A stretch of 64,000 nucleotides of DNA from a virus. Made by a program: the position numbers and the translations under genes. The stretch spans positions 1-64,000 of IMG/VR virus record IMGVR_UViG_3300049215_000223; one strand, written 5' to 3'. Numbering within the stretch: the stretch's first letter is position 1; each line of letters opens with the position of its first letter. The notes under the pieces were generated by a model that was given only the letters and a program-made list of their open reading frames with translations, did no database searches and was not told the DNA's origin. Shown in pieces: positions 4,408-35,383 of this stretch.

Positions 4408-4562
4408 TAATGCTTCCCTCTACACCAACAGGCGCAATGTGCAATGCACAATGCACAGTTTACGAGAGCAAACTTCATCCGGTTGCCAATTGCAATTGTC
4501 ACCGTCAATTTCGTTTGCCCTGCAATAAATAGATTTTTTTTGCTTGAGGCTTCTTATCTCTC

Positions 4563-12362: not shown

Positions 12363-12437
12363 GATACTTCGTCCTTTCAATTACTAGGTTCATACCGTTG
12401 GGCGATGGGCTAGTTACAGCCACAACAGAATATTGCA

Positions 12438-12453
12438 TGCAAAATCTGTGCCA
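12438..12453 (-). promoter_or_regulatory. Single sigma54-type -24/-12 site
   Basis: TGGCACAGATTTTGCA (GG-N10-GC), upstream of motif copy 12395. Confidence 0.55.
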
Positions 12454-16746: not shown

Positions 16747-17106
16747 TCACTTCGCGGGCTGATCGGCGCGGCGCGTGACGCCGCCCTTCTTGCCCTTCGC
16801 GATCACGAAGAGGCTCGAATCGCCCTTCGCGTTTTCGCGGACGTACTCCATGACGCGCGTTTCGAGCGTCTTGTAGTTTTCCGGCTGAGCATTGAGCTGC
16901 TGAAGCGCAAAGCCAGCGACGGCGGGCATGTTGATCGAAAGACCCTTGTGCGAGTCGAACACGGTGCGGACCGCATCCGCAATCGCCGAAAGCTCCGTCT
17001 CGCGTTCCGCGACGTACTTGACGAGAGCCGCATCGAACGCAAGGCGCGAAGCCTTCTCGTCGATCTTGCCATCCTTCGTAGCGAGTGTAATCGTAAGTGT
17101 ACTCAT
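16747..17106 (-). CDS. Putative DNA-binding protein, paralog of 26131..26487
   Basis: Shared INMPAV/LNVPAL and AKGKKGG/AKGKNGG. Confidence 0.7.
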   Translation of the reverse strand: MSTLTITLATKDGKIDEKASRLAFDAALVKYVAERETELSAIADAVRTVFDSHKGLSINMPAVAGFALQQLNAQPENYKTLETRVMEYVRENAKGDSSLFVIAKGKKGGVTRRADQPAK

Positions 17107-26130: not shown

Positions 26131-26487
26131 TTACTTGGCGTCCTTCCAACGCCAGATGCCGCCGTTCTTTCCCTTCGCCGTGCCGAGGAGCTTGCCCGAA
26201 GCCTTCTCCGCGTGACGGTTCTCTTCGAGAAACGCCTTGACGCGTTCCGAAAGGCGCGAATACGTCGCGGGAGTCGCCTGCAACGCCTGCATGACGAAAC
26301 CTTCGAGCGCAGGAACGTTCAGACGAGCACCCGGATAGCGATCGAAGATCGCATTCACCGCGTTGCTGATTGCTTCCTGATCCGCCGATTGCTCCGCCAC
26401 GTAGACGTCGAATGCATCCGACGCCGCCTGAAGAAACGCCGCCTTGTCCGAAAGGCTCTTGACCTCGATCTCGATTGACTTGCTCAT
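26131..26487 (-). CDS. Putative DNA-binding protein, paralog of 16747..17106
   Basis: See paralog motifs; downstream of motif copy 26546. Confidence 0.7.
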   Translation of the reverse strand: MSKSIEIEVKSLSDKAAFLQAASDAFDVYVAEQSADQEAISNAVNAIFDRYPGARLNVPALEGFVMQALQATPATYSRLSERVKAFLEENRHAEKASGKLLGTAKGKNGGIWRWKDAK

Positions 26488-26580
26488 GATGTTTTTCCCT
26501 TTTTCCTTTTCCTTGTTTCGTGACCCTTGTACCCTCATCTTCATGCCGTTTGGCGATGGGGCTTAGACTTGACCGAACGG

Positions 26581-26790: not shown

Positions 26791-26880
26791 GCTCTCTAAC
26801 CGTTGGGCGATGGGAGGTTTTGAGAATTGGTATAGGGACTGCACATAGCAATCCCCATACCAAGTTACGCGAAAGCCCTT

Positions 26881-27300
26881 TCAGGCTTTCAGCACCCGCT
26901 TTGCAGCGCTGATCATTGCGGCAAGCACCGCATCGCTCTTGCTCACCAATTCGGGATACTCTTGACGCAAAGCGTCGTATCCAGCTTTGCCAGGAGCAAT
27001 GCCGTTGTTCTTCTGCACGTAGGTGCGAATCTTGCCCGACATGCTGTTGGGCTGATTGCCACGCCCCTTTTTGCCCTTGCCCTTGTTGACTTCCTTTTCC
27101 AGGGAAGCCAGGGAGATCGCATCTTGGCTCTGCTCGTCGATGCTCTTTTGATCCTTGAGCGTCAAGCATGCCGCCAGCATCTTTCGATGATTGTCGGTCA
27201 TGGGTTCCTTGACGTTCGGCTTCAAACCGAGAAGGTTTGCATGCGTGCCGACGATGGCGACCAGGGATTGAAGCTGCTCGCGACTGTTGATCTGAATCAT
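26881..27300 (-). CDS. Basic hypothetical protein
   Basis: AGGT RBS; K-rich KGKGKKGRG segment. Confidence 0.65.
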   Translation of the reverse strand: MIQINSREQLQSLVAIVGTHANLLGLKPNVKEPMTDNHRKMLAACLTLKDQKSIDEQSQDAISLASLEKEVNKGKGKKGRGNQPNSMSGKIRTYVQKNNGIAPGKAGYDALRQEYPELVSKSDAVLAAMISAAKRVLKA

Positions 27301-27647
27301 CGAACCACCTTACCTTTGAAACCGCACTTCTTGGCGACGTGCGGGAAGTGACGACGAAGCGTCTTCACACGAGACGGATTGACCCTGTAGGACATGCTGC
27401 CTTCGATCTTCATGATGGCACCATGCTCGCATGCACGACTCAGATCGTGCAGGATGTGATTCAGGTTGTAGGTTCGGTCCACCTTGAGAAAGTGAACCAG
27501 GGCTTCACCTGCCGTGAACGTTCCACCCGATTCCAGACGGGTCCAGAAGAGAAGGTGTCGAACGCGCGAAGGCACGTTGTGATGCACCGCATTCCCTTTG
27601 ATCGTGGTGAACTCTGCCGGAAACACACTCGCATTCAAGTAACGCAT
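27297..27647 (-). CDS. Hypothetical protein, possible winged HTH
   Basis: Downstream of motif copy 27668; ILHDLSRACEHGAIMKIEGSMSYRV. Confidence 0.55.
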   Translation of the reverse strand: MRYLNASVFPAEFTTIKGNAVHHNVPSRVRHLLFWTRLESGGTFTAGEALVHFLKVDRTYNLNHILHDLSRACEHGAIMKIEGSMSYRVNPSRVKTLRRHFPHVAKKCGFKGKVVR

Positions 27648-27688
27648 TCTCGTTCTCTTGTTTCTCGCCGTTGGGCGATGGGTTGTGG

Positions 27689-28225
27689 TTACTTCGGAAT
27701 CACTGTCAGACCACGACTCGATTGCATGTACTCCCCCGCATAGAAGCGCTTGAGGAGATCCCACAATGCCGCACGTGGTATCGGAAAGTTTGGAACCTGA
27801 TTGATCTTCTCTTCCCTATTGAACTTGCGTCCAGGGATATTGCGCCAAGCTTGCAAGGTCTCTTCCTTGTAGGGCGCACGAATGTGCAGGTAATCACCAT
27901 GGTCTTCTACCATGACAGTCACCTTGCGATCGATGAGAACGTTTGCGAGCATATCGAAACCGATCTCGCGCAGACGAACGATTGCCGCCATTAGATGCTC
28001 ACCGGGCAATCCACACGCAATGCTGTAGACGATTCGATTGCCTTCCTTGCGGGCGTCTTCTGAAACGTTGGGCGCTTTCTTGCCCATGAAGCCATGCTTG
28101 CTTCGACATGAAGGACCCATGCCATATTCGATAGACTTGGAATCCAGTAAGGCTTCCCCGCAGATTGCGCAGGTTACCTTCAACATCTTGGTTGCGGGCG
28201 CGTCATGATAATCTGTCATGCTCAT
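27689..28225 (-). CDS. DUF6011-like zinc motif plus HARP-like domain protein
   Basis: CAICGEALLDSKSIEYGMGPSC; LHIRAPY...WRNIPGRKFN. Confidence 0.6.
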   Translation of the reverse strand: MSMTDYHDAPATKMLKVTCAICGEALLDSKSIEYGMGPSCRSKHGFMGKKAPNVSEDARKEGNRIVYSIACGLPGEHLMAAIVRLREIGFDMLANVLIDRKVTVMVEDHGDYLHIRAPYKEETLQAWRNIPGRKFNREEKINQVPNFPIPRAALWDLLKRFYAGEYMQSSRGLTVIPK

Positions 28226-28408
28226 ACCCTCACATTCAAACCGTTTGGCGATGGGTTACTTACACCTACGCTTGTAGTCAGAACGATAGGTTCTGGCGCT
28301 TGTGTTGAAGTGTACCATGCCCATTGCCGCAAGCGCAGGCATGCTGATGTACTTAGCATCGCGATACTTTTTGAGTACCGTATCCAATGCTCGCTTCATG
28401 GAAGCCAT

Positions 28409-28630
28409 CTACTTTGGTCCCGTCCAAGTCAGCACATGGTTATCCTCAGACACCATGCCCGTGCGCTTGAGAAGATCGATGACCTTGTTGTAGGATTCCT
28501 GGGATAGCTGTCCCATGAGTTCGGCATACAGTCTGCCGTTGGGAACACTTCCCAAGTCACGGATAGCAGATCCTACTGCCATGACTGCGCTCAATCCCGC
28601 TTTGACTTCTTCCTTGGTGACCGTGTTCAT
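28409..28630 (-). CDS. Small winged-helix-like protein
   Basis: GSVPNGRLYAELMG...LKRTGMVSEDNHVLTW; ATG 15 nt after motif copy 28646. Confidence 0.55.
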   Translation of the reverse strand: MNTVTKEEVKAGLSAVMAVGSAIRDLGSVPNGRLYAELMGQLSQESYNKVIDLLKRTGMVSEDNHVLTWTGPK

Positions 28631-28767
28631 GCATTCACCTTCTAACCGTTATGCGATGGGTAGCACACACTCCCGATTGAGAGGGTATCAGGGAATACAA
28701 GGGATTCTAACCCCGCATGCGTATCCCTGATACCTTGTCGTTTCTCCCGTTATGCGATGGGTTTCTC

Positions 28768-29403
28768 TCAGCCGTGAGAGAAGCTTGCTCGCGTGGTAAC
28801 TGCGGCTTTCATTCCGAAGGTAAGCTTGCCAGTTGATCCGCCTGTCTTACGGCATGCTGGACCCTTGGGCTGAGCTAGAATCCTAGCAATGGCATCTTGG
28901 CGAAGGATGACGGTAGAGATCGGTTGACCGTCCTTGCCAAACATCTTGGTTGACACGACCGTGCCAAACCAATCGGGCGCACCATCGAAGAGACGACGAT
29001 CACACCATCGATCCGCATCCGAACACGAATCGAACCCTTGACGCAAGGTGATATCGTCACCCGCCGCGTTGAAGATACAAGCGATCCACGCCTTTTCCTC
29101 TCGCGGTTCTTTGATCGGTTTGGTCGCAGGTTCACCCTTGGCGCTCGTGTCGGCATTGGCGATGTTTTCCGCCAACATGTGACCCAGCACGACCGCAGAG
29201 ATTGCTTGCAGTGCAGGCGTAGGATACAATTCCTTCGCATCCAATTGCGTGAGAATGGGAGTCACGAATTGCGCCAACGTTCCCGTCAGAAGCCATTCGC
29301 GATGTTGGGCGATGAAACCTTCTGCACTACGTGCGCCCTGCTTGGCAGCCTTATTCAGGAAGCCCTTGGCAGTCATCTTGCGCTCTTTCTTTTCGGTGCT
29401 CAT
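28768..29403 (-). CDS. Hypothetical protein
   Basis: GAAAGG RBS after motif copy 29418. Confidence 0.7.
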   Translation of the reverse strand: MSTEKKERKMTAKGFLNKAAKQGARSAEGFIAQHREWLLTGTLAQFVTPILTQLDAKELYPTPALQAISAVVLGHMLAENIANADTSAKGEPATKPIKEPREEKAWIACIFNAAGDDITLRQGFDSCSDADRWCDRRLFDGAPDWFGTVVSTKMFGKDGQPISTVILRQDAIARILAQPKGPACRKTGGSTGKLTFGMKAAVTTRASFSHG

Positions 29404-29589
29404 GACTTACCTTTCATACCGTTGGGCGATGGGTTGACGTTGCGAATTAGCTAAGAGCATCCCCTTGGGGCATTACGCTTTTATGCTTAGCTATAGAGAG
29501 TAAAGAGCGGAGCACTATAGCATGGTTCAGTAACTAATTACAGCACGCAGCGCGCCTGTATAACACACTATAGTCGGTCTGCTCTTAGT

Positions 29590-29668
29590 TGTGGATTAGG
29601 GAATCGAACCCAATGCGACACCAACCTTGGAAGGCGCAACGTCCCGTTGCCTTTTCAGTGTCATTCAC
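29590..29668 (-). tRNA. Highly degenerate tRNA-Gly(TCC)-like sequence
   Basis: T-loop GGG-TTCGATT-CCC, CTTCCAA loop, GCAAC/GTTGC hairpin; acceptor stem has mismatches. Confidence 0.3.
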
Positions 29669-30350
29669 AATTCATTGATTCACGCCGTTTGGCGATGGGC
29701 TTCACTTCCCAGTCAATCGATGGTAGCCGTAGAAGACGACACCACCGATCAAGAAGTACCACGGCACGCCGTGATCGGAAACATGAAACGCCGTTTGACC
29801 CGTTCCCGGAATCATCGAGATCACGATCGCCATGGTGAAAACCGTGGCGAGAAGAATGACGAACAATCGACCCATTGTCTTGCTCCCTTGCCCTTCGCTT
29901 CATGCCGTTTGGCGATGGGAAAAGCTACGGCAAAGTAAAAACGACCACGCCCTACTTTGCCGTAGCATGTTTTGGTTTTACGCAGCTTGTCTCAGGTACT
30001 TCGCGCCGTTTGGCGATGGGTATGTTTCATTGTTCACATACCTTTGGTTATTAGCCGTTTGGCGATGGGCTAGCTTCCCTTGGCACCATTCTTGCAACGC
30101 GTGCGCGCGTCGCGCGTTATGAGGCGGCGACTTTGGCACGCACCCTGCACATTGCAACGACCATGCCATATCCCGTTTGACATTATGTGAAGGCGTAGCC
30201 CGCTGCGCTGACCATACATTGCCCTATATGACACTACATGTATGGTGGGCAAGTGCGTTCGCTATAAAATTTCAGCCACACTGGAATCCCGCTTGGCATG
30301 TAAACTGCATATAGCAACAAGCATGCCAGCCCGAAAGCGGAAAAAGAAAA

Positions 30351-30387
30351 AGCCCTACCACCTTTCCGCCAAGAAGGTGATAGGGCT
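30351..30387 (-). terminator. Intrinsic terminator-like hairpin
   Basis: GCCCTA-CCACCTT...AAGGTG-ATAGGGC with TTTTTCTTTTT on minus. Confidence 0.55.
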
Positions 30388-30447
30388 AAGAAGTTTAGTA
30401 GCCCGAGCAGGGCATGATGAACAGCTCGACGAGACACTCGATCTTGA

Positions 30448-30717
30448 TCATGACTCCTCCTTCAGAAGAGATCGGTTCGTTCGCTGGGCAGAGCCACACG
30501 CGTGCATTGCGGGTAACTCTGAATCAGACACATCCCCTTGAGGTCGCACCAATCCTCCAAGGACAGATGCGACACCACCGTGCCATACAGCACGTCGCGT
30601 GGATTGTGACGCTTGCAGACCATCACGTGATACTGCATCGCGATAGCTTCCGCTTCGACGACACGGATCTCGAATGTCTTGGACGTGAGAAGACTTTGAA
30701 CGACAGTCATCATACAC
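30448..30717 (-). CDS. Hypothetical protein (true frame and start uncertain)
   Basis: Overlapping GC-rich ORFs; an alternative frame ends at 30462. Confidence 0.3.
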   Translation of the reverse strand: MYDDCRSKSSHVQDIRDPCRRSGSYRDAVSRDGLQASQSTRRAVWHGGVASVLGGLVRPQGDVSDSELPAMHACGSAQRTNRSLLKEES

Positions 30718-30943
30718 CTTCCTTCAAGAGACGGGAGAAGTACACTTCCCATTCGCGGGAAGCGATACCAGCAAAGTCGAGAGGAGAACCCTCCTCGTGG
30801 TCTGACTCTTCGGGCAACATGCCCACGAAGGGACAAGTGCTTTCGCAGTCGTCGTCACACGGACCCTCGCGTCGCTCCGATTCACGAAAGCGATCGATTG
30901 CCGTGTAGTCGTCACCTGCAACGATGTCGAGATAGAAACTCAT
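30710..30943 (-). CDS. Acidic hypothetical protein
   Basis: GGAGG RBS after motif copy 30973. Confidence 0.6.
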   Translation of the reverse strand: MSFYLDIVAGDDYTAIDRFRESERREGPCDDDCESTCPFVGMLPEESDHEEGSPLDFAGIASREWEVYFSRLLKEGV

Positions 30944-31611
30944 GTCATCCTCCGATATGATGGCGGTTCATGCCGTTGGGCGATGGGACTCAGGGGAAGC
31001 ACTTGTTATACTTGTCGCGCCAATCCTGAATTGCTGCGTCAGCGCTCGTACCTTTTCCGATGATAGAGTATCCCGGATGATGAGCCGTCCAATCGAATCG
31101 ACTCCACTTCGTGCAGACGATCTGATAGTCCGGTATGTGTGCAGACTTGGGACGTTCCGGTTTCGCAATCAAAGGGATCTTGCGATCTCCCTCGCGAAAC
31201 TCTAGGGAATCGCTATGGGAATTGGGAAACACACAATCCCCTTGTTTGACGTGTTTGATGATACGGGTTAGAGGTATGGCTTTACCATCCGTATCTAGAC
31301 GTGCTTTGGTTGCTTTAGCCATCGAGCCATTCTCGCTTTCGACGAGCATCGTTGGCACGGCGATCCTGCTTGGATCGCATCTTGCCTGCTTTGCGGTGCA
31401 TGGCTGCAACTGCAACCCCCGAACGCTTGGGACGATGATCCTCTTCTTTGATGTGAATCAAAGTCTTGCTCATGTCTACACCTTCAAGCCGTTTGGCGAT
31501 GGGTTTAGGTACGAATCTCGACGATACACAGATAGGCGAGAATACCCACTACCGCCCAACCTGCAAGTGTCATGCCAATGATGACCATGACACTTGTGAG
31601 AGGGGTGGCTT

Positions 31612-31938
31612 TCAATCCCGCCCCATTGCTTCATTGTAGCCATCGCAACCAAACGCCATGCCAGCTTGCATAGCATTCTCGCGCTTCCAATCGGAATCGT
31701 CGTCGCGAGTTTTGCGGTAGTTCGGATTCTTGCGGTACCTGGAAGAGATCCCGTGCTTTGATAGCTCGGAATCCTCCAATCCGTCAAGCTCGATGTACTT
31801 CACGCTTGAATCCCCAGGATCCGCGTGGAATGCTTCGATCGCTTCTTCGAGTGAATCGAAGTCTTCGCCCGTGAAGCAATCGTCGTTTTCCTCGTCAGGG
31901 TGCGAACCCCAATGCGAGACACTGAACGGCTTACTCAT
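31612..31938 (-). CDS. Hypothetical protein
   Basis: GAGGTG RBS after motif copy 31967; SHWGSHPDEENDDC...GMAFGCDGYNE. Confidence 0.7.
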   Translation of the reverse strand: MSKPFSVSHWGSHPDEENDDCFTGEDFDSLEEAIEAFHADPGDSSVKYIELDGLEDSELSKHGISSRYRKNPNYRKTRDDDSDWKRENAMQAGMAFGCDGYNEAMGRD

Positions 31939-32219
31939 CCGTCACCTCACATCAACCTGTTTCACACCGTTTGGCGATGGGCGTCGCAGTAACGACATTG
32001 TGAGCGAATGCACATGGCATACTTATTGCTCACGTAGTCCGCGCATGAGTACATGCACCTTGGATACCGCAACAATTGCACGACAACCGTTTTACCGTAT
32101 CGCCGCGACTGACAACCTACCTTTCATACCGTTTGGCGATGGGACATTCATCCAGCTGCAATTGACTTGGCTCGAACATTGCACATTGCAAAACCAATGC
32201 CAACCAAAAAGCAGAACGC

Positions 32220-32251
32220 AAAAAAGCCCGACACCCTTTCGGGCATCGGGC
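32220..32251 (-). terminator. Intrinsic terminator
   Basis: GCCCGATGCCC-GAAA-GGGTGTCGGGC-TTTTTT right after the 32273 stop. Confidence 0.75.
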
Positions 32252-32272
32252 TCTTTCTGCTGCGGCTGGAAA

Positions 32273-33055
32273 TCAGCTTTCCAGTGCGGCGCGAATCTCG
32301 GCGAGGCGATCTTCTTCGAGCTTGATCGTCTGCGCGTAGGTCAGCGCTTGCGTCGCACTGAGCACCGCGAAGCACTCCGCTGCTGGCATGGCGAGCGCTT
32401 GATCGAGCAAGCGCATCTCGTTTTCGCTGAGCGCTTCCCTCGCCGCTTCGCGAGTCTCGCAGATCGTATCAGCCGCGAGACGTTCGCGAGCGATCAGATC
32501 GCGCATCCGTCGCGCCTCGTAATCGGGCATTCCTGCGACGTAACCCTTACCCGTGGCGCGACGTTCGACCGTTTGGACGGGGCGAGGGTCGAGCGCACGG
32601 ATCGCTGTCATGTTGGCGCGCAATTCTTGCGCCCCGAACGTGAGGACGTTGTGCTCGTGAACGTTGCCCGAATCATCTACGACGCGCGGACCTTGCGCAT
32701 CGTAGCCAGTGAACGCGGCGATGGCACGGATCTTGTCGTTCAGGATCTCCTTGTCCAGCGTGAACGGAATTCCGTTCTCGGTGTAACGAGTGCCAGCGGC
32801 GCGCATGGCGAGCACGAAACCCTTGGCATCGATCGTGCCTTTCGGCTCGACGGGAAAGGCGAGACGCGGGGCGGCGAGCTCGATGGGTGCGCTCTCTTCT
32901 TTCTTGGCACGGAGCTTGCGCATCGTGGGTTTCACGACGGGCGACGCAGGGCGGTCGATCGCCTCGACGATGGCATGGCTCTTGCTATCGTCCGTGACGG
33001 GCGAGGCGTAGGACGCGGCGAGGGAAGCGAGAAACGTTGCGGTCAGATCAGTCAT
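32273..33055 (-). CDS. First gene of the leftward GC-rich region, Ala-rich hypothetical protein
   Basis: AGGAGG RBS; preceded by motif copy 33085 and sigma54 palindromes. Confidence 0.75.
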   Translation of the reverse strand: MTDLTATFLASLAASYASPVTDDSKSHAIVEAIDRPASPVVKPTMRKLRAKKEESAPIELAAPRLAFPVEPKGTIDAKGFVLAMRAAGTRYTENGIPFTLDKEILNDKIRAIAAFTGYDAQGPRVVDDSGNVHEHNVLTFGAQELRANMTAIRALDPRPVQTVERRATGKGYVAGMPDYEARRMRDLIARERLAADTICETREAAREALSENEMRLLDQALAMPAAECFAVLSATQALTYAQTIKLEEDRLAEIRAALES

Positions 33056-33612
33056 GGCGGGAACCTCCTAACCCTAGGTGCTAGCCGTTTGGCGATGGGG
33101 CGACCGCCCTGTTTTGCCTTGGCTCGGGCTTTGCATAGTGCAAAAGGTATGCCAAAGTAGGGAAAACTCCCACCATGTAGGCAAAACTCTTATCCTTCGT
33201 GGTACCGACCTTGCTTATTGCAAAAACAATACCAATGATCAATAAGAAAAGAAAAAACTATTATGTTATCATTGTAAAAGAATAATTACTATCTAATTGT
33301 AATTGATCGATGGTATGATCATTGCTTAGAGCAATAACAGTGCCACCCCCAATTCCACAGCCAGAGTAAACCTGGGGGATGACCGGCATTGGCACGCTTC
33401 TTGCCTCCCAAACGGGGGTCTAACTGCCAATTGAACCACCAAACTAGATACAAACAGATACAAACTAACCCCAAACAAACATAATTACCATATCTGTATC
33501 GCCATTACCATATAAAACCATACAAATATCGTCACATATGGTCATTTTACAATTCCATATTCCTTAAAGCATCTTATCACATTATAAACAATATAATATC
33601 AACCATACATGA

Positions 33613-33667
33613 ACATATATGACCATATGTTGCCATACATATATGACCATATGTTGCCATACATATA
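33613..33667. repeat. 24-bp tandem repeat (2.3 copies) in AT-rich intergenic hub
   Basis: ACATATATGACCATATGTTGCCAT twice plus ACATATA. Confidence 0.9.
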
Positions 33668-33966
33668 GTATCACATATAGTCATTCAATAGATTAGGGTA
33701 GCCAGTCAACACCAGGCGAGGATAACCTACCTGACACCCAATTGCTGGCACGAGAATCAATTTAAAACTATCTTCCCACCCCAAACAACCCCATGACGCC
33801 AGAAGAGAGACCAAGAGTCTTATAAATAGATTTAAGGGCAAAGCTCATCCATAAATATTAATGAGTAAAATGCAAATAGATCAAAAGGTTCTGGGGTTAA
33901 TAAGGCATTTTTCTTTTAACCTTCTCACACGCAAGCCACCTGCAGGGTTAGAAGATCGGAATTTAC

Positions 33967-34743
33967 ATGAAGAACGCTTCAAGATTGCTCGCTCTTTTCA
34001 CATTGGCATTAGTAATAACCTCATGCGGAGGGATGATAACCAACAGGCAACCCAGTTCATTAGTAAGGCACATGGGAAGTAGTACGGTAGCATTAGTATT
34101 CCAGGTAGAGGGAGAATACAGACCATTTTGCACAGGTGTATGGGTAGAAGACAAGAAGATACTAACAGCCAATCACTGTATTAATGCGGTAGCCAAGGCG
34201 ATAGCTCAGAAGGAATCAGGCGATGAGGAAGCGCTTGTACCAGACGATACGGTAGGCACACCAATTCATTATATTTTAGAGAACGAAGTCCAAGCGGTAG
34301 GACAAGAGCCATATGCCATTCACTTAGGCAAAGCGGTCAAGGTAGATGAGGATCATGACTTAGCATTAGTGGAAGCATTAGGACCGGTACCATCGCATGA
34401 CGTAGCGAAGTTAGTAAGTACCTCACCAGCGATTGGAGAGAAGCTACATTTTGTGGGACATGTTAGAGGTTTGTATTGGACATATGTTGATGGAATAGTT
34501 GCAGCATATCGTGAGGATTTGGTACATAAGGGACCAATCATGCAAGTATCAGCACCAGTTTACTTTGGTAATTCTGGAGGCGGAGCCTTTACAGAAAGTG
34601 GCGAGTTATGTGGCATTGCATCTTATTTGATGCCAGCACCAATTACAGCGGGATACATTCACGCAGAGAGCATTCGCAAGTTTTTAATGCCATCGGACGA
34701 TGTTAAGGCACCATTCCGTGGCAAGATCATCAACAAGGAGTGA
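33967..34743 (+). CDS. Trypsin-like serine protease lipoprotein
   Basis: TANHC (His), DLALV (Asp), GNSGG (Ser); lipobox ITSC. Confidence 0.88.
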   Translation: MKNASRLLALFTLALVITSCGGMITNRQPSSLVRHMGSSTVALVFQVEGEYRPFCTGVWVEDKKILTANHCINAVAKAIAQKESGDEEALVPDDTVGTPIHYILENEVQAVGQEPYAIHLGKAVKVDEDHDLALVEALGPVPSHDVAKLVSTSPAIGEKLHFVGHVRGLYWTYVDGIVAAYREDLVHKGPIMQVSAPVYFGNSGGGAFTESGELCGIASYLMPAPITAGYIHAESIRKFLMPSDDVKAPFRGKIINKE

Positions 34744-34747
34744 AAGT

Positions 34748-35383
34748 ATGTTTAAACGCTTTTGCTTATTCGTTATGGTTATCATTCTTAGTTTAGTTGG
34801 AGTAGATTGTGGACCGCCACCGGTTCGCCCATTTGCTTATACGCATCACGGACATGCAGCTTATGCACCCATTAAGATCATTCCAATATGGATTGACAAG
34901 GAATTTAGTGAGGGAGATAAGCTAGCGATAGACGATGCGATTAACCAATGGAATTTTGCATTGAACAACTACATAGTGTTGAGGGTAGTGAACGACAACT
35001 TTGATATGGAGCCGAGTGTAATTAATCGGGTTATGTTAAAGGGCGAGGGATGGTTGATACTCAAGATTAACAGTGGCAGTGAGTTTGTGCATGATGAAGG
35101 GTGTATGTTGACACTTGCCTTTGTGAACGAGATAGGTGGAAACAGGGCATACTTTATTAGGGACAGGCTTGGGAGTGATCAGATGATAGGGGTAGCGATG
35201 CATGAGATTGGGCATTTGCTAGGTGCAAAGCATGATCATGCTCATTTGATGAGACCTGTATTTAATTGGGCGACTTATCGATGTGTAGATGAGGAAGCTA
35301 TCAAGAAGGTAGCGGCATATCAGCATTTAGAGTTCAAGTACATGAATTACTGTGAATATGGACCAGAGCTTCAGGACAAGTGA
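34748..35383 (+). CDS. Matrixin-like zinc metalloprotease
   Basis: HEIGHLLGAKH, LM Met-turn; N-terminal signal ending in Cys. Confidence 0.82.
   Translation: MFKRFCLFVMVIILSLVGVDCGPPPVRPFAYTHHGHAAYAPIKIIPIWIDKEFSEGDKLAIDDAINQWNFALNNYIVLRVVNDNFDMEPSVINRVMLKGEGWLILKINSGSEFVHDEGCMLTLAFVNEIGGNRAYFIRDRLGSDQMIGVAMHEIGHLLGAKHDHAHLMRPVFNWATYRCVDEEAIKKVAAYQHLEFKYMNYCEYGPELQDK

Follow-up and report, generated by a model that had tools for sequence, protein, structure and literature searches.

Mirror-paired sigma-54-type boxes at gene-cassette borders of a giant phage, an arrangement almost confined to viruses

Introduction

Transcription by the sigma-54 (RpoN) polymerase is regarded as a tightly gated bacterial system that serves nitrogen use, flagella, pili, envelope stress and RNA repair. 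Its promoters, exemplified by glnAp2 and pspA, follow the -24/-12 consensus YTGGCACGR-N3-TTGCW, and RNA starts about 12 bp beyond the GC. These promoters are single and directional, and they are accompanied by an upstream activator site. To our knowledge, phages scarcely figure in the sigma-54 literature.

Several described systems share features with the locus considered here. Bidirectional sigma-70 promoters arise from the symmetry of the -10 element, and their divergent starts most often lie 18 bp apart (Warman et al., bioRxiv 10.1101/2020.01.31.928960; PMC12825309). That symmetry is a by-product of the near-palindromic TATAAT, and sigma-54 is mentioned in neither paper. A second relative is the promoter-early stem-loop (PeSL) cassette of the T4-type phages RB49 and phi1, for which cassette shuffling has been documented (Arbiol et al. 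2010, PMC2839356). PeSLs are near-identical, recombining repeats with strong sigma-70-like early promoters. Finally, Htm (Gp204) of Mosigvirus AV110 is a phage AAA+ protein structurally similar to enhancer-binding proteins; it has no GAFTGA loop, and any connection with sigma-54 is hypothetical (bioRxiv 10.64898/2026.10.06.757011). Htm shows that phages can carry divergent activator-like proteins devoid of a DNA-binding domain, possibly acting on sigma-54 polymerase from solution, which is the type of factor that would be needed here.

The single sigma-54 box is thus familiar. What appears new is its pairing in mirror image, for which no description was found in the literature, and the near confinement of such pairs to viruses.

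Seven mirrored elements in a giant phage

The window analysed is a stretch of 64,000 nt, positions 1-64,000 of IMGVR_UViG_3300049215_000223, a 178,722-bp contig of a giant uncultured phage. Seven 35-bp elements lie at the borders of its cassettes of small genes, each composed of two opposed sigma-54-type boxes in the pattern TGGYWY-N5-YTGCW, 3 bp, mirror image. They are listed here with their counterparts in a related locus, L564:

26828..26862, double box 1: rightward TGGTATAGGGACTGCA, gap CAT, leftward TGGTATGGGGATTGCT; 13 nt from the motif at 26800-26814, past the stop of gene 26881-27300 (-)
30134..30168, double box 2: syntenic double box in L564 at 5426
30294..30328, double box 3: directly after the strong terminator 30340-30387 in the leftward sense; syntenic double box in L564 at 5621
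32168..32202, double box 4: between terminator 32216-32244 (-) and the motif at 32129-32143
33120..33154, double box 5 (hub): the motif at 33085-33099 is 20 nt away and gene 32273-33055 (-) lies downstream; weaker syntenic double box in L564 at 9220
33200..33234, double box 6 (hub): lowest-scoring pair, without a counterpart in L564
33311..33345, double box 7 (hub): syntenic double box in L564 at 9388

All seven had been located at these positions by an initial annotation, whose description of them largely stands. The degenerate pattern matches the window seven times, against 0.00 in 100 dinucleotide-preserving shuffles, and a scan of all 178,722 bp returned no further face-to-face pair on the contig; among gap lengths of 0-11, 3 bp is the only one occurring. 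GG-N10-GC is present in every half (14/14) and TTGC in 7/7 minus-strand halves, with CTGC in three of the plus-strand halves, and the spacer reads Y-A-K throughout (CAT, CAT, TAT, CAT, TAG, TAT and TAG in order along the window). Three copies are packed into 226 bp at 33120-33345, close to the 230 bp initially given, and four lie 13, 64, 24 and 20 nt from a copy of a 15-nt motif, as the annotated range of 13-64 nt had it. Over 42 nt the copies are 62-79% alike, with the likeness confined to box positions; 22/35 positions are shared and the flanks differ.

The term palindrome, under which the elements had been introduced, fits the box positions and fails for the N5 stretches, which are not complementary. 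In the viral set as a whole, N5 complementarity is 0.29 versus 0.34 for shuffled partners, and it is complete in 0/428 pairs. This lack of complementarity marks the elements as probable protein-recognition sites rather than hairpins. A structural role, as DNA cruciform or as RNA hairpin or terminator, would draw on the self-complementary box positions and on the copy at 26828, which folds at -8.9 kcal/mol (z = -3.9). Yet single-strand folding of the 35-mers is weak overall (-3.7 to -8.9 kcal/mol, with large internal loops), z ranges from -0.8 to -2.1 in the other six copies, the stems keep their sequence with no sign of covariation, and both solo boxes and separate intrinsic terminators adjoining the elements exist. 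Such a role is highly improbable.

Resemblance to sigma-54 promoters

Sequence comparison supports identifying the halves as sigma-54-type -24/-12 boxes that abut at their -12 ends. Across viral loci, 797 distinct halves follow the sigma-54 consensus at the very positions left free by the search pattern, with T at -27 in 56-65%, a purine at -20 in 96-98% and T at -15 in 89-97%. With the retrieval pairs left out, the N5 spacing accounts for 991 boxes in 3.6 Mb of viral loci, versus 17-52 for each of the other spacings within N2-N9. Nor are the outer and inner elements interchangeable: their real order occurs 2033 times versus 29-172 for other orders. The strict spacing, the fixed element order and the extended consensus bear out the initial designation as sigma-54 boxes. 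With bacterial sigma-54 promoters the phage boxes share the bipartite box, the rigid GG-N10-GC spacing, the extended consensus, the intergenic position and the T-tract before the GC that marks strong binders. They differ in being fused -12 end to -12 end, with no activator, activator site or rpoN gene found.

About half of all boxes in the viral loci are solo, which bears on the suggestion that the element is an operator for a dimeric or tetrameric DNA-binding protein, of phage or host, with a half-site that resembles a sigma-54 promoter by chance. The inverted-repeat layout, the four TKGCA-like elements one helical turn apart, and the arrays and hubs reminiscent of operator clusters would suit such a protein. 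Solo boxes, a gap varying over 2-5 bp, non-equivalent outer and inner elements and free positions that follow the sigma-54 consensus do not, and no protein family is common to the site neighbourhoods across lineages. Moreover, viral contigs that range from 27-66% GC and differ entirely in gene content carry one and the same 16-bp half-site, as would be expected of a universal reader and not of an operator. The operator is therefore unlikely, and less likely than the mutual-occlusion switch and the sigma-54 sponge that the initial annotation proposed beside it.

Placement at cassette borders

The double boxes of the window are all intergenic. At cassette borders the order is stop codon, terminator hairpin, double box, a leader with a lineage-specific 15-nt motif, Shine-Dalgarno sequence and ATG. 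The accompanying features are:

12438..12453 (-), solo sigma-54-type box TGGCACAGATTTTGCA: faces leftward genes; highest scorer of the window (23.1); the motif at 12395-12409 lies 28 nt downstream
30081..30096 (+), solo box: faces away from leftward genes; the motif at 30055-30069 is 11 nt away
31562..31577 (-), solo box: same direction as leftward genes; the motif at 31489-31503 lies 58 nt downstream
32015..32030 (+), solo box: faces away from leftward genes; the motif at 31967-31981 is 33 nt away
33390..33405 (+), solo box TGGCACGCTTCTTGCC, rightward: at the hub's right margin, oriented towards the protease genes
26871..26890 (-), weak 7-bp hairpin without a T-run, read from the sequence: between the stop of gene 26881-27300 (-) and double box 1
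30340..30387 (-), putative intrinsic terminator, likewise recognised by its sequence: 14-nt arms then a T-run; closes the unit that precedes double box 3
32216..32244 (-), intrinsic terminator of gene 32273-33055 (-): double box 4 comes next
33085..33099 (-), 15-nt leader motif CCCATCGCCMAACGG: one of four copies following a double box, the others at 26800-26814, 30055-30069 and 32129-32143
33056..33966, non-coding hub: separates leftward gene 32273-33055 from rightward genes 33967-35383 and contains three double boxes, a solo box and 24-bp tandem repeats
32273..33055 (-), first leftward gene at the hub: 260 aa, without a family match; homologues adjoin sigma-54 boxes in five other phage loci
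33967..35383 (+), genes for a trypsin-like protease and a metalloprotease that face the hub: in locus L069 the hub is flanked by homologues of 41-42% identity

The 15-nt motif has 21 copies in the window, in a single orientation throughout. The three hub copies of the double box lie between divergent genes; the remaining four do not. In the wider viral set, 1/87 sites falls inside a gene versus 26% of random positions, and 34% lie between divergent genes versus 12% of random positions.

These placements, together with the match to sigma-54 boxes, make it roughly an even bet (probability about 0.5) that the elements are activator-gated two-way promoters or docking sites for the host sigma-54 holoenzyme, used in one orientation at a time. 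Transcription of the cassette would begin from the leftward half after an activator had opened the closed complex, the activator being a host enhancer-binding protein or a phage factor acting from solution. The rightward half might give a short divergent or antisense RNA, or provide a second way to hold the enzyme. On a matrix built from viral halves, window halves score 11.3-21.5 and leftward halves 15.4-21.5; the leftward half outscores the rightward in 7/7 pairs, and leftward halves face genes. Sigma-70-like promoters are scarce at 26-34.5 kb (4 versus 8.1 expected). Counting against a promoter reading, there is no gene for the rightward halves of boxes 1-4 to transcribe.

Relatives of the locus show how far the arrangement is kept. 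L564, whose proteins are 30-46% identical to those of the window, carries 16 copies of the same 15-nt motif and double boxes at four places syntenic with the window, with flanks and N5 diverged to ~35% identity. In L069 and L025 a multi-box hub lies between the same protease genes and a homologue of the 260-aa gene, and a comparable hub is also present in L564. Even an unrelated 335-kb phage, G017, has terminator, double box, a leader motif of its own and ATG in that order.

The PeSL parallel is close in layout. In both systems a terminator stem-loop and a promoter, or here a promoter-like part, make up a small regulatory module that recurs beside small non-essential genes within a single plastic region of a large phage genome, and here a terminator adjoins a promoter-like box at boxes 1, 3 and 4 (at box 1 a weak hairpin without a T-run). 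It could be imagined that the border modules are mainly recombination junctions for cassette shuffling, as with PeSLs (PMC2839356), and that promoter activity is secondary: the terminator and promoter-like module recurs at borders of small genes without recognised function, and gene content between the conserved modules differs among the window, L564, L069 and L025. However, whereas PeSLs are near-identical repeats, the phage element is a mirrored sigma-54 pair whose copies are alike at box positions only, and 22/35 common positions with differing flanks offer too little identity for homologous exchange. Junctions would also leave the exact sigma-54 consensus and the mirror symmetry unexplained, and this explanation is quite improbable.

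Geometry of the opposed boxes

By the -24/-12 convention, the predicted starts of the two halves lie 18 bp apart and point outwards, with 16-19 bp in the wider class; starts placed by this geometry fall within the 7-25 bp expected of bidirectional promoters. Each predicted start is inside the opposite box, in keeping with the initial remark that the opposing box would cover a start site, so two polymerases could not share one element, and a holoenzyme bound in one orientation would exclude the other. The mutual exclusion of the initial picture thus stands on geometric grounds. The predicted transcripts diverge instead of colliding, and the element appears laid out as a two-way promoter.

The element has in common with bidirectional sigma-70 promoters a pseudo-symmetric site, either polymerase orientation and mutually exclusive binding, with a predicted spacing of 18 bp matching their most frequent one. 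In contrast to TATAAT, the sigma-54 box has no internal symmetry, and 32 specified base pairs must be built and maintained.

Distribution and direction in other viruses

Mirror pairs with gaps of 2-5 bp occur in several hundred viral contigs, several giant phages among them: at least 119 contigs with a gap of 3 bp, at least 120 with 2 bp and 111 with 4 bp. The reversed control pattern gave 0 matches. The fixed 3-bp spacer reported initially is a property of this lineage; across the class as a whole the gap is 2-5 bp. In 596 Gb of bacterial genomes, mirror pairs are near chance level.

Direction is less clear-cut outside the window. By crude gene calls, halves with and against gene direction are equally good in the wider viral set (p = 0.34), and 49 solo boxes point with genes and 40 against; such a lack of direction bias, as far as crude calls go, fits a binding site better than a classical promoter. 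Tentatively, the element may be a virus-specific, mirror-symmetric docking element for host sigma-54 polymerase, common to many unrelated phage lineages and selected for either-orientation binding, not for classical promoter activity. It would capture, poise or titrate holoenzyme at early-gene cassette borders, possibly to be fired by a phage factor replacing the enhancer-binding activator.

A rival reading holds that docking is non-productive: the closed complexes would be stable and never meant to fire, serving as a decoy that titrates scarce sigma-54, or as roadblocks or insulators at cassette borders, and mirror symmetry would let the site work from either side. Halves kept equally well whatever the gene direction, solo boxes without direction bias and a nearly virus-specific element suit it, as do the tandem arrays at 43-57-bp pitch in other phages and the confinement of boxes to one region in complete giant genomes. 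It also agrees with the search for partner proteins, whose outcome weighs against activator-gated promoters. No sigma-54 DNA-binding domain was found on the contig (42% of the genome) or in any of 49 viral records with boxes, of which 24 are complete. The enhancer-binding AAA+ domains PF00158 and PF14532 were absent from the contig (again, 42% of the genome), and the same 49 records yielded no enhancer-binding AAA+ domain and 2 weak generic AAA+ matches. No Htm-like gene was found on the 179 kb contig, and no shared upstream activator site or motif was seen in the flanks of the window boxes. Against permanent silence stand the better gene-ward half in 7/7 window pairs and sites whose setting, behind terminators and ahead of leaders in a sigma-70-poor region, calls for a promoter. 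Besides, 19 boxes per genome copy make a small sponge early in infection, and a decoy does not require positional conservation at syntenic gene borders. Overall, non-productive docking is less probable than activator-gated promoters.

As for the host, there is no evidence for the Myxococcota host first suggested; the sole hint, a phage RF2 gene, points weakly to Bacteroidota.

Implications

At conserved places, hundreds of viral contigs of very different composition maintain 32 specified, mirrored base pairs that bacterial chromosomes do not, which points to a common, little-studied interaction between phages and the sigma-54 polymerase. Firing at these sites would require phages to open sigma-54 complexes in the absence of any recognisable activator, whereas silent sites would mean that phages sequester or park the sigma-54 enzyme. 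The sites may also serve as an annotation marker for early-cassette regions in uncultured giant phages. Should the docking reading be true, phages would be exploiting or disarming the sigma-54 system in a way that has not been described before.

Seven pairs of opposed boxes in a giant phage contig

The 35-bp elements listed below, each composed of two sigma-54-type halves that face one another across 3 bp, are all present where the initial annotation placed them, and its account of their make-up holds as well: the gap reads Y-A-K, every minus-strand half contains TTGC, and a 15-nt motif is found 13-64 nt away from four of the copies. The geometry also exceeds the expectation from base composition, the pattern TGGYWY-N5-YTGCW-N3-WGCAR-N5-RWRCCA having seven matches in the window versus 0.00 in shuffles. 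With the reversed, non-complemented pattern returning 0 matches across all viral contigs, chance or composition was rejected as the origin. No further face-to-face pair occurs elsewhere on the contig at gaps from 0 to 11, so that 3 bp is the sole gap. Single boxes number 21 in the window versus 1.5 expected and are concentrated within 26.8-33.4 kb; those without an opposed partner are termed solo boxes.

Sigma-54-type boxes (start positions) and flanks of the hub in the window
26828, opposed halves on both strands: double box 1
30134, opposed halves on both strands: double box 2
30294, opposed halves on both strands: double box 3
32168, opposed halves on both strands: double box 4
33120, opposed halves on both strands: double box 5
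33200, opposed halves on both strands: double box 6
33311, opposed halves on both strands: double box 7
12438, minus strand: solo box
30081, plus strand: solo box
31562, minus strand: solo box
32015, plus strand: solo box
33390, plus strand: solo box
32273-33055, leftward: gene flanking the hub
Other flank of the hub, rightward: trypsin-like and metalloprotease genes

The source record measures 178,722 bp (the window being its first 64 kb) at a CheckV completeness of 42%, and the source is therefore a giant uncultured phage. Among 50,697 phage records, no relatives of the region were found at either the nucleotide or the protein level. The GC content of the window is ~50% across 14-34 kb and drops to 33-37% from 36 kb on; relatives with both the motif and double boxes all have 50-60% GC. 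This drop may reflect acquisition of the 50%-GC segment from a 50-60%-GC phage or a chimeric contig.

Sigma-54 character of the halves

At positions left free by the search, 797 distinct halves gathered from viral loci match the published sigma-54 consensus, with T at -27 and R at -19; a purine occupies -20 in 96-98% of them and T occupies -15 in 89-97%. An N5 spacer is present in 991 boxes, and every other spacer from N2 to N9 in 17-52 (retrieval pairs excluded). TGGYAY, the outer element, and YTGCW, the inner, do not substitute for one another, which argues against four identical helix-turn-helix contacts; that the element is the operator of a putative dimeric regulator seems unlikely. Complementarity between the N5 tracts of paired halves is 0.29, below the 0.34 of shuffled partners, and none of 428 N5 pairs is fully complementary. 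Single-strand folding of the window 35-mers is weak, and this, together with the avoidance of complementarity in N5, led to the rejection of a hairpin or cruciform; a structural element of any kind is the least credible reading. Taken together, the consensus, the N5 spacing, the asymmetry of the elements, the non-complementary N5 tracts and the weak folds show two protein-recognition boxes and no hairpin. Host sigma-54 holoenzyme probably recognises them.

Predicted starts and local layout

By the -24/-12 naming convention, RNA would start near position 27 of the 35-mer, rightward, from the plus-strand box and near position 9, leftward, from the minus-strand box, so that the transcripts would diverge from starts 18 bp apart. 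The earlier proposal that the opposing box covers the leftward start agrees with this predicted geometry, in which each start falls within the other box, and one element would be too small for two holoenzymes at once. Predicted start-to-start distances span 16-19 bp in the wider class. In symmetric sigma-70 promoters 18 bp is likewise the commonest distance; there, however, symmetry comes free with TATAAT, whereas in sigma-54 double boxes it must be built.

Read leftward, boxes 1, 3 and 4 are placed after the preceding gene's stop codon and a hairpin, those adjoining boxes 3 and 4 being clear intrinsic terminators. Boxes 1, 2, 4 and 5 and the solo boxes at 12438 and 31562 are followed 13-64 nt on by the motif CCCATCGCCMAACGG, then by a Shine-Dalgarno sequence and ATG. 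The gene-ward (leftward) half outscores its partner in 7/7 window pairs, and sigma-70-type promoters are scarce in the box region (4 versus 8.1 expected). The hub is a non-coding stretch of ~900 bp, filled by boxes 5-7 together with the solo box at 33390, which points rightward.

Copies of the leader motif CCCATCGCCMAACGG are spread over 9782-33099 of the window. The motif lies 10-29 nt upstream of start codons with or without a sigma-54 box, and its reader is therefore probably phage-specific. Multi-copy use is confined to this lineage (seven metagenome contigs); the viral collection holds single chance matches only, and relatives were found solely among metagenome contigs. Amid three close copies (29905, 30006, 30055), after which come only tiny ORFs, lies a perfect inverted repeat (29924-29966) with 14-nt arms and flanking A-runs and T-runs, resembling a two-way terminator. 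A tRNA-like T-arm (GGGTTCGATTCCC) on the minus strand at about 29590-29630, within a 240-bp non-coding stretch, has no ARAGORN call and no Rfam match; Rfam gave no match across 9-36 kb of the window. The 134-nt stretch separating boxes 2 and 3 folds no better than shuffles (z = +0.68), and a small RNA there was rejected.

Within the hub, four tandem 24-bp repeats (ACATATATGACCATATGTTGCCAT) occupy AT-rich DNA at 33603-33684. They are iteron-like and may indicate where replication starts, or else form a regulator array; at the equivalent place, the box-bearing viral locus L025 has two GTCACTTGAT repeats. A short GC-rich element, reading GTTAGACCCC(N)TTTGGGAGGC on the minus strand, lies beside the sigma-54 hubs of three distantly related phages, and in the window begins directly after solo box 33390.

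Positions of the GC-rich element
33407-33428, minus-strand reading: window
About 4510-4535: viral locus L069
About 585-610: viral locus L025

Recurrence in related phages

Scanning metagenomes for the motif, 10-30 nt and a box yielded seven contigs of GC 0.50-0.60. Among these, L564 (11 kb) carries 16 motif copies in a single orientation and homologues of the window 211-aa (46% identity) and 260-aa (30%) proteins in the same order. Its double boxes, with a 3-bp gap throughout, occupy four positions that correspond by synteny to window boxes 2, 3, 5 and 7, in non-coding DNA that is scarcely alignable with the window. Identity is 87.5% at box positions, 35% in N5 plus gap and 36% in the flanks; as 3/4 of the L564 sites were retrieved by the same pattern, the first figure is partly built in, and the independent evidence is recurrence at syntenic places. 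L069 and L025 encode both proteases (41-42% identity) and a homologue of the 260-aa gene, and retain multi-box hubs with a diverged leader motif, GCTCCCATTCAC(G/T)G. Back-translated patterns of the 260-aa protein found no relatives. Two paralogous small proteins of the window (16747-17106 and 26131-26544, both minus strand) match Gmx_para_CXXCG weakly and have homologues in the box-bearing L110, L044 and the giant phage G003 (two copies in the last).

A wider class in viruses

Exact scans of the viral collection found the 3-bp gap in at least 119 contigs, 2 bp in at least 120 and 4 bp in 111, on contigs of 27% to 66% GC. Counts over the 3.5 Mb of loci fetched are 148, 157, 129 and 68 for gaps of 2, 3, 4 and 5 bp, 11 and 3 for gaps of 1 and 6 bp, and zero for gaps of 0 and 7 bp. 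Bacterial and archaeal genomes (596 Gb), scanned with a similar pattern, gave 49 loci versus ~9 by chance; several of the 49 are genuine perfect hairpins from Actinomycetota, and others sit on small contigs with multiple boxes within metagenome bins. Box sites are hardly ever intragenic and are over-represented between divergent genes. A mainly recombinational role is very improbable. In complete giant phages the boxes are grouped in one region.

Boxes in complete giant phages
G017 (335 kb): 258.8-279.8 kb, about 14 pairs
G003 (447 kb): around the contig ends
G007: 39-43 kb

The order in G017 is that of the window: a terminator comes first, then the double box, a leader motif of ~30 nt peculiar to this phage, and ATG, with genes running rightward. 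In this complete, unrelated phage (G017 = L555 2700-19000) the conserved leader following each double box is AACTCTAAAAAGATATCTTCCGAAGTAATAAA, which includes the palindrome AAGATATCTT; several gene-ward halves are degenerate (ATGC) and backward halves near-perfect. A cultured carrier of the element was sought without success; cobaviruses are without boxes, as are Brevundimonas and Caulobacter giant phages.

The largest family of ORFs near sites comes from a marine group encoding terminase, portal and a putative small terminase. In this marine lineage (L353, L341, L345, L126 and ~100 other viral loci), 1-3 tandem double boxes at a 46-57-bp pitch always lie upstream of an operon of putative small terminase, (M15 peptidase), large terminase and portal, divergent from a GP88-like gene. 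These boxes may act as the promoter of a late operon, or they may be connected with the packaging site.

Candidate activators and the nature of the element

A phage-encoded sigma-54 reader or activator was rejected, the 178,722-bp contig (42% complete) having none of PF04552, PF00158, PF14532 and PF07728, and 49 box-bearing viral records, 24 of them complete, having neither PF04552 nor PF00158. The 260-aa hub protein was rejected as activator; it is without a Walker motif, sequence searches of Pfam, PHROG and PDB gave no match, and its AlphaFold model (pLDDT 67, pTM 0.33) is too weak for searching. Clustering of 5,194 site-near ORFs gave lineage-specific families only, and a conserved neighbouring regulator gene was likewise discarded.

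The missing sigma-54 and enhancer-binding genes count against a plain promoter, and no upstream activator site common to the flanks was seen. In the wider set, gene-ward halves are neither better nor worse than backward ones, and solo boxes run 49 with genes and 40 against (both by crude gene calls); two window solo boxes face away from genes, 11 and 33 nt from the leader motif. The main rival is non-productive docking, in which the boxes would act as decoy or roadblock; we regard it as possible but doubtful.

No account of phages with mirrored sigma-54 boxes emerged from full-text literature searches, the nearest published ideas being symmetric sigma-70 promoters, PeSL cassettes and a phage AAA+ protein that resembles activators. 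We favor, at a probability of roughly 0.5, double boxes at cassette borders that would serve these phages as activator-gated two-way promoters able to work in only one direction at a time.
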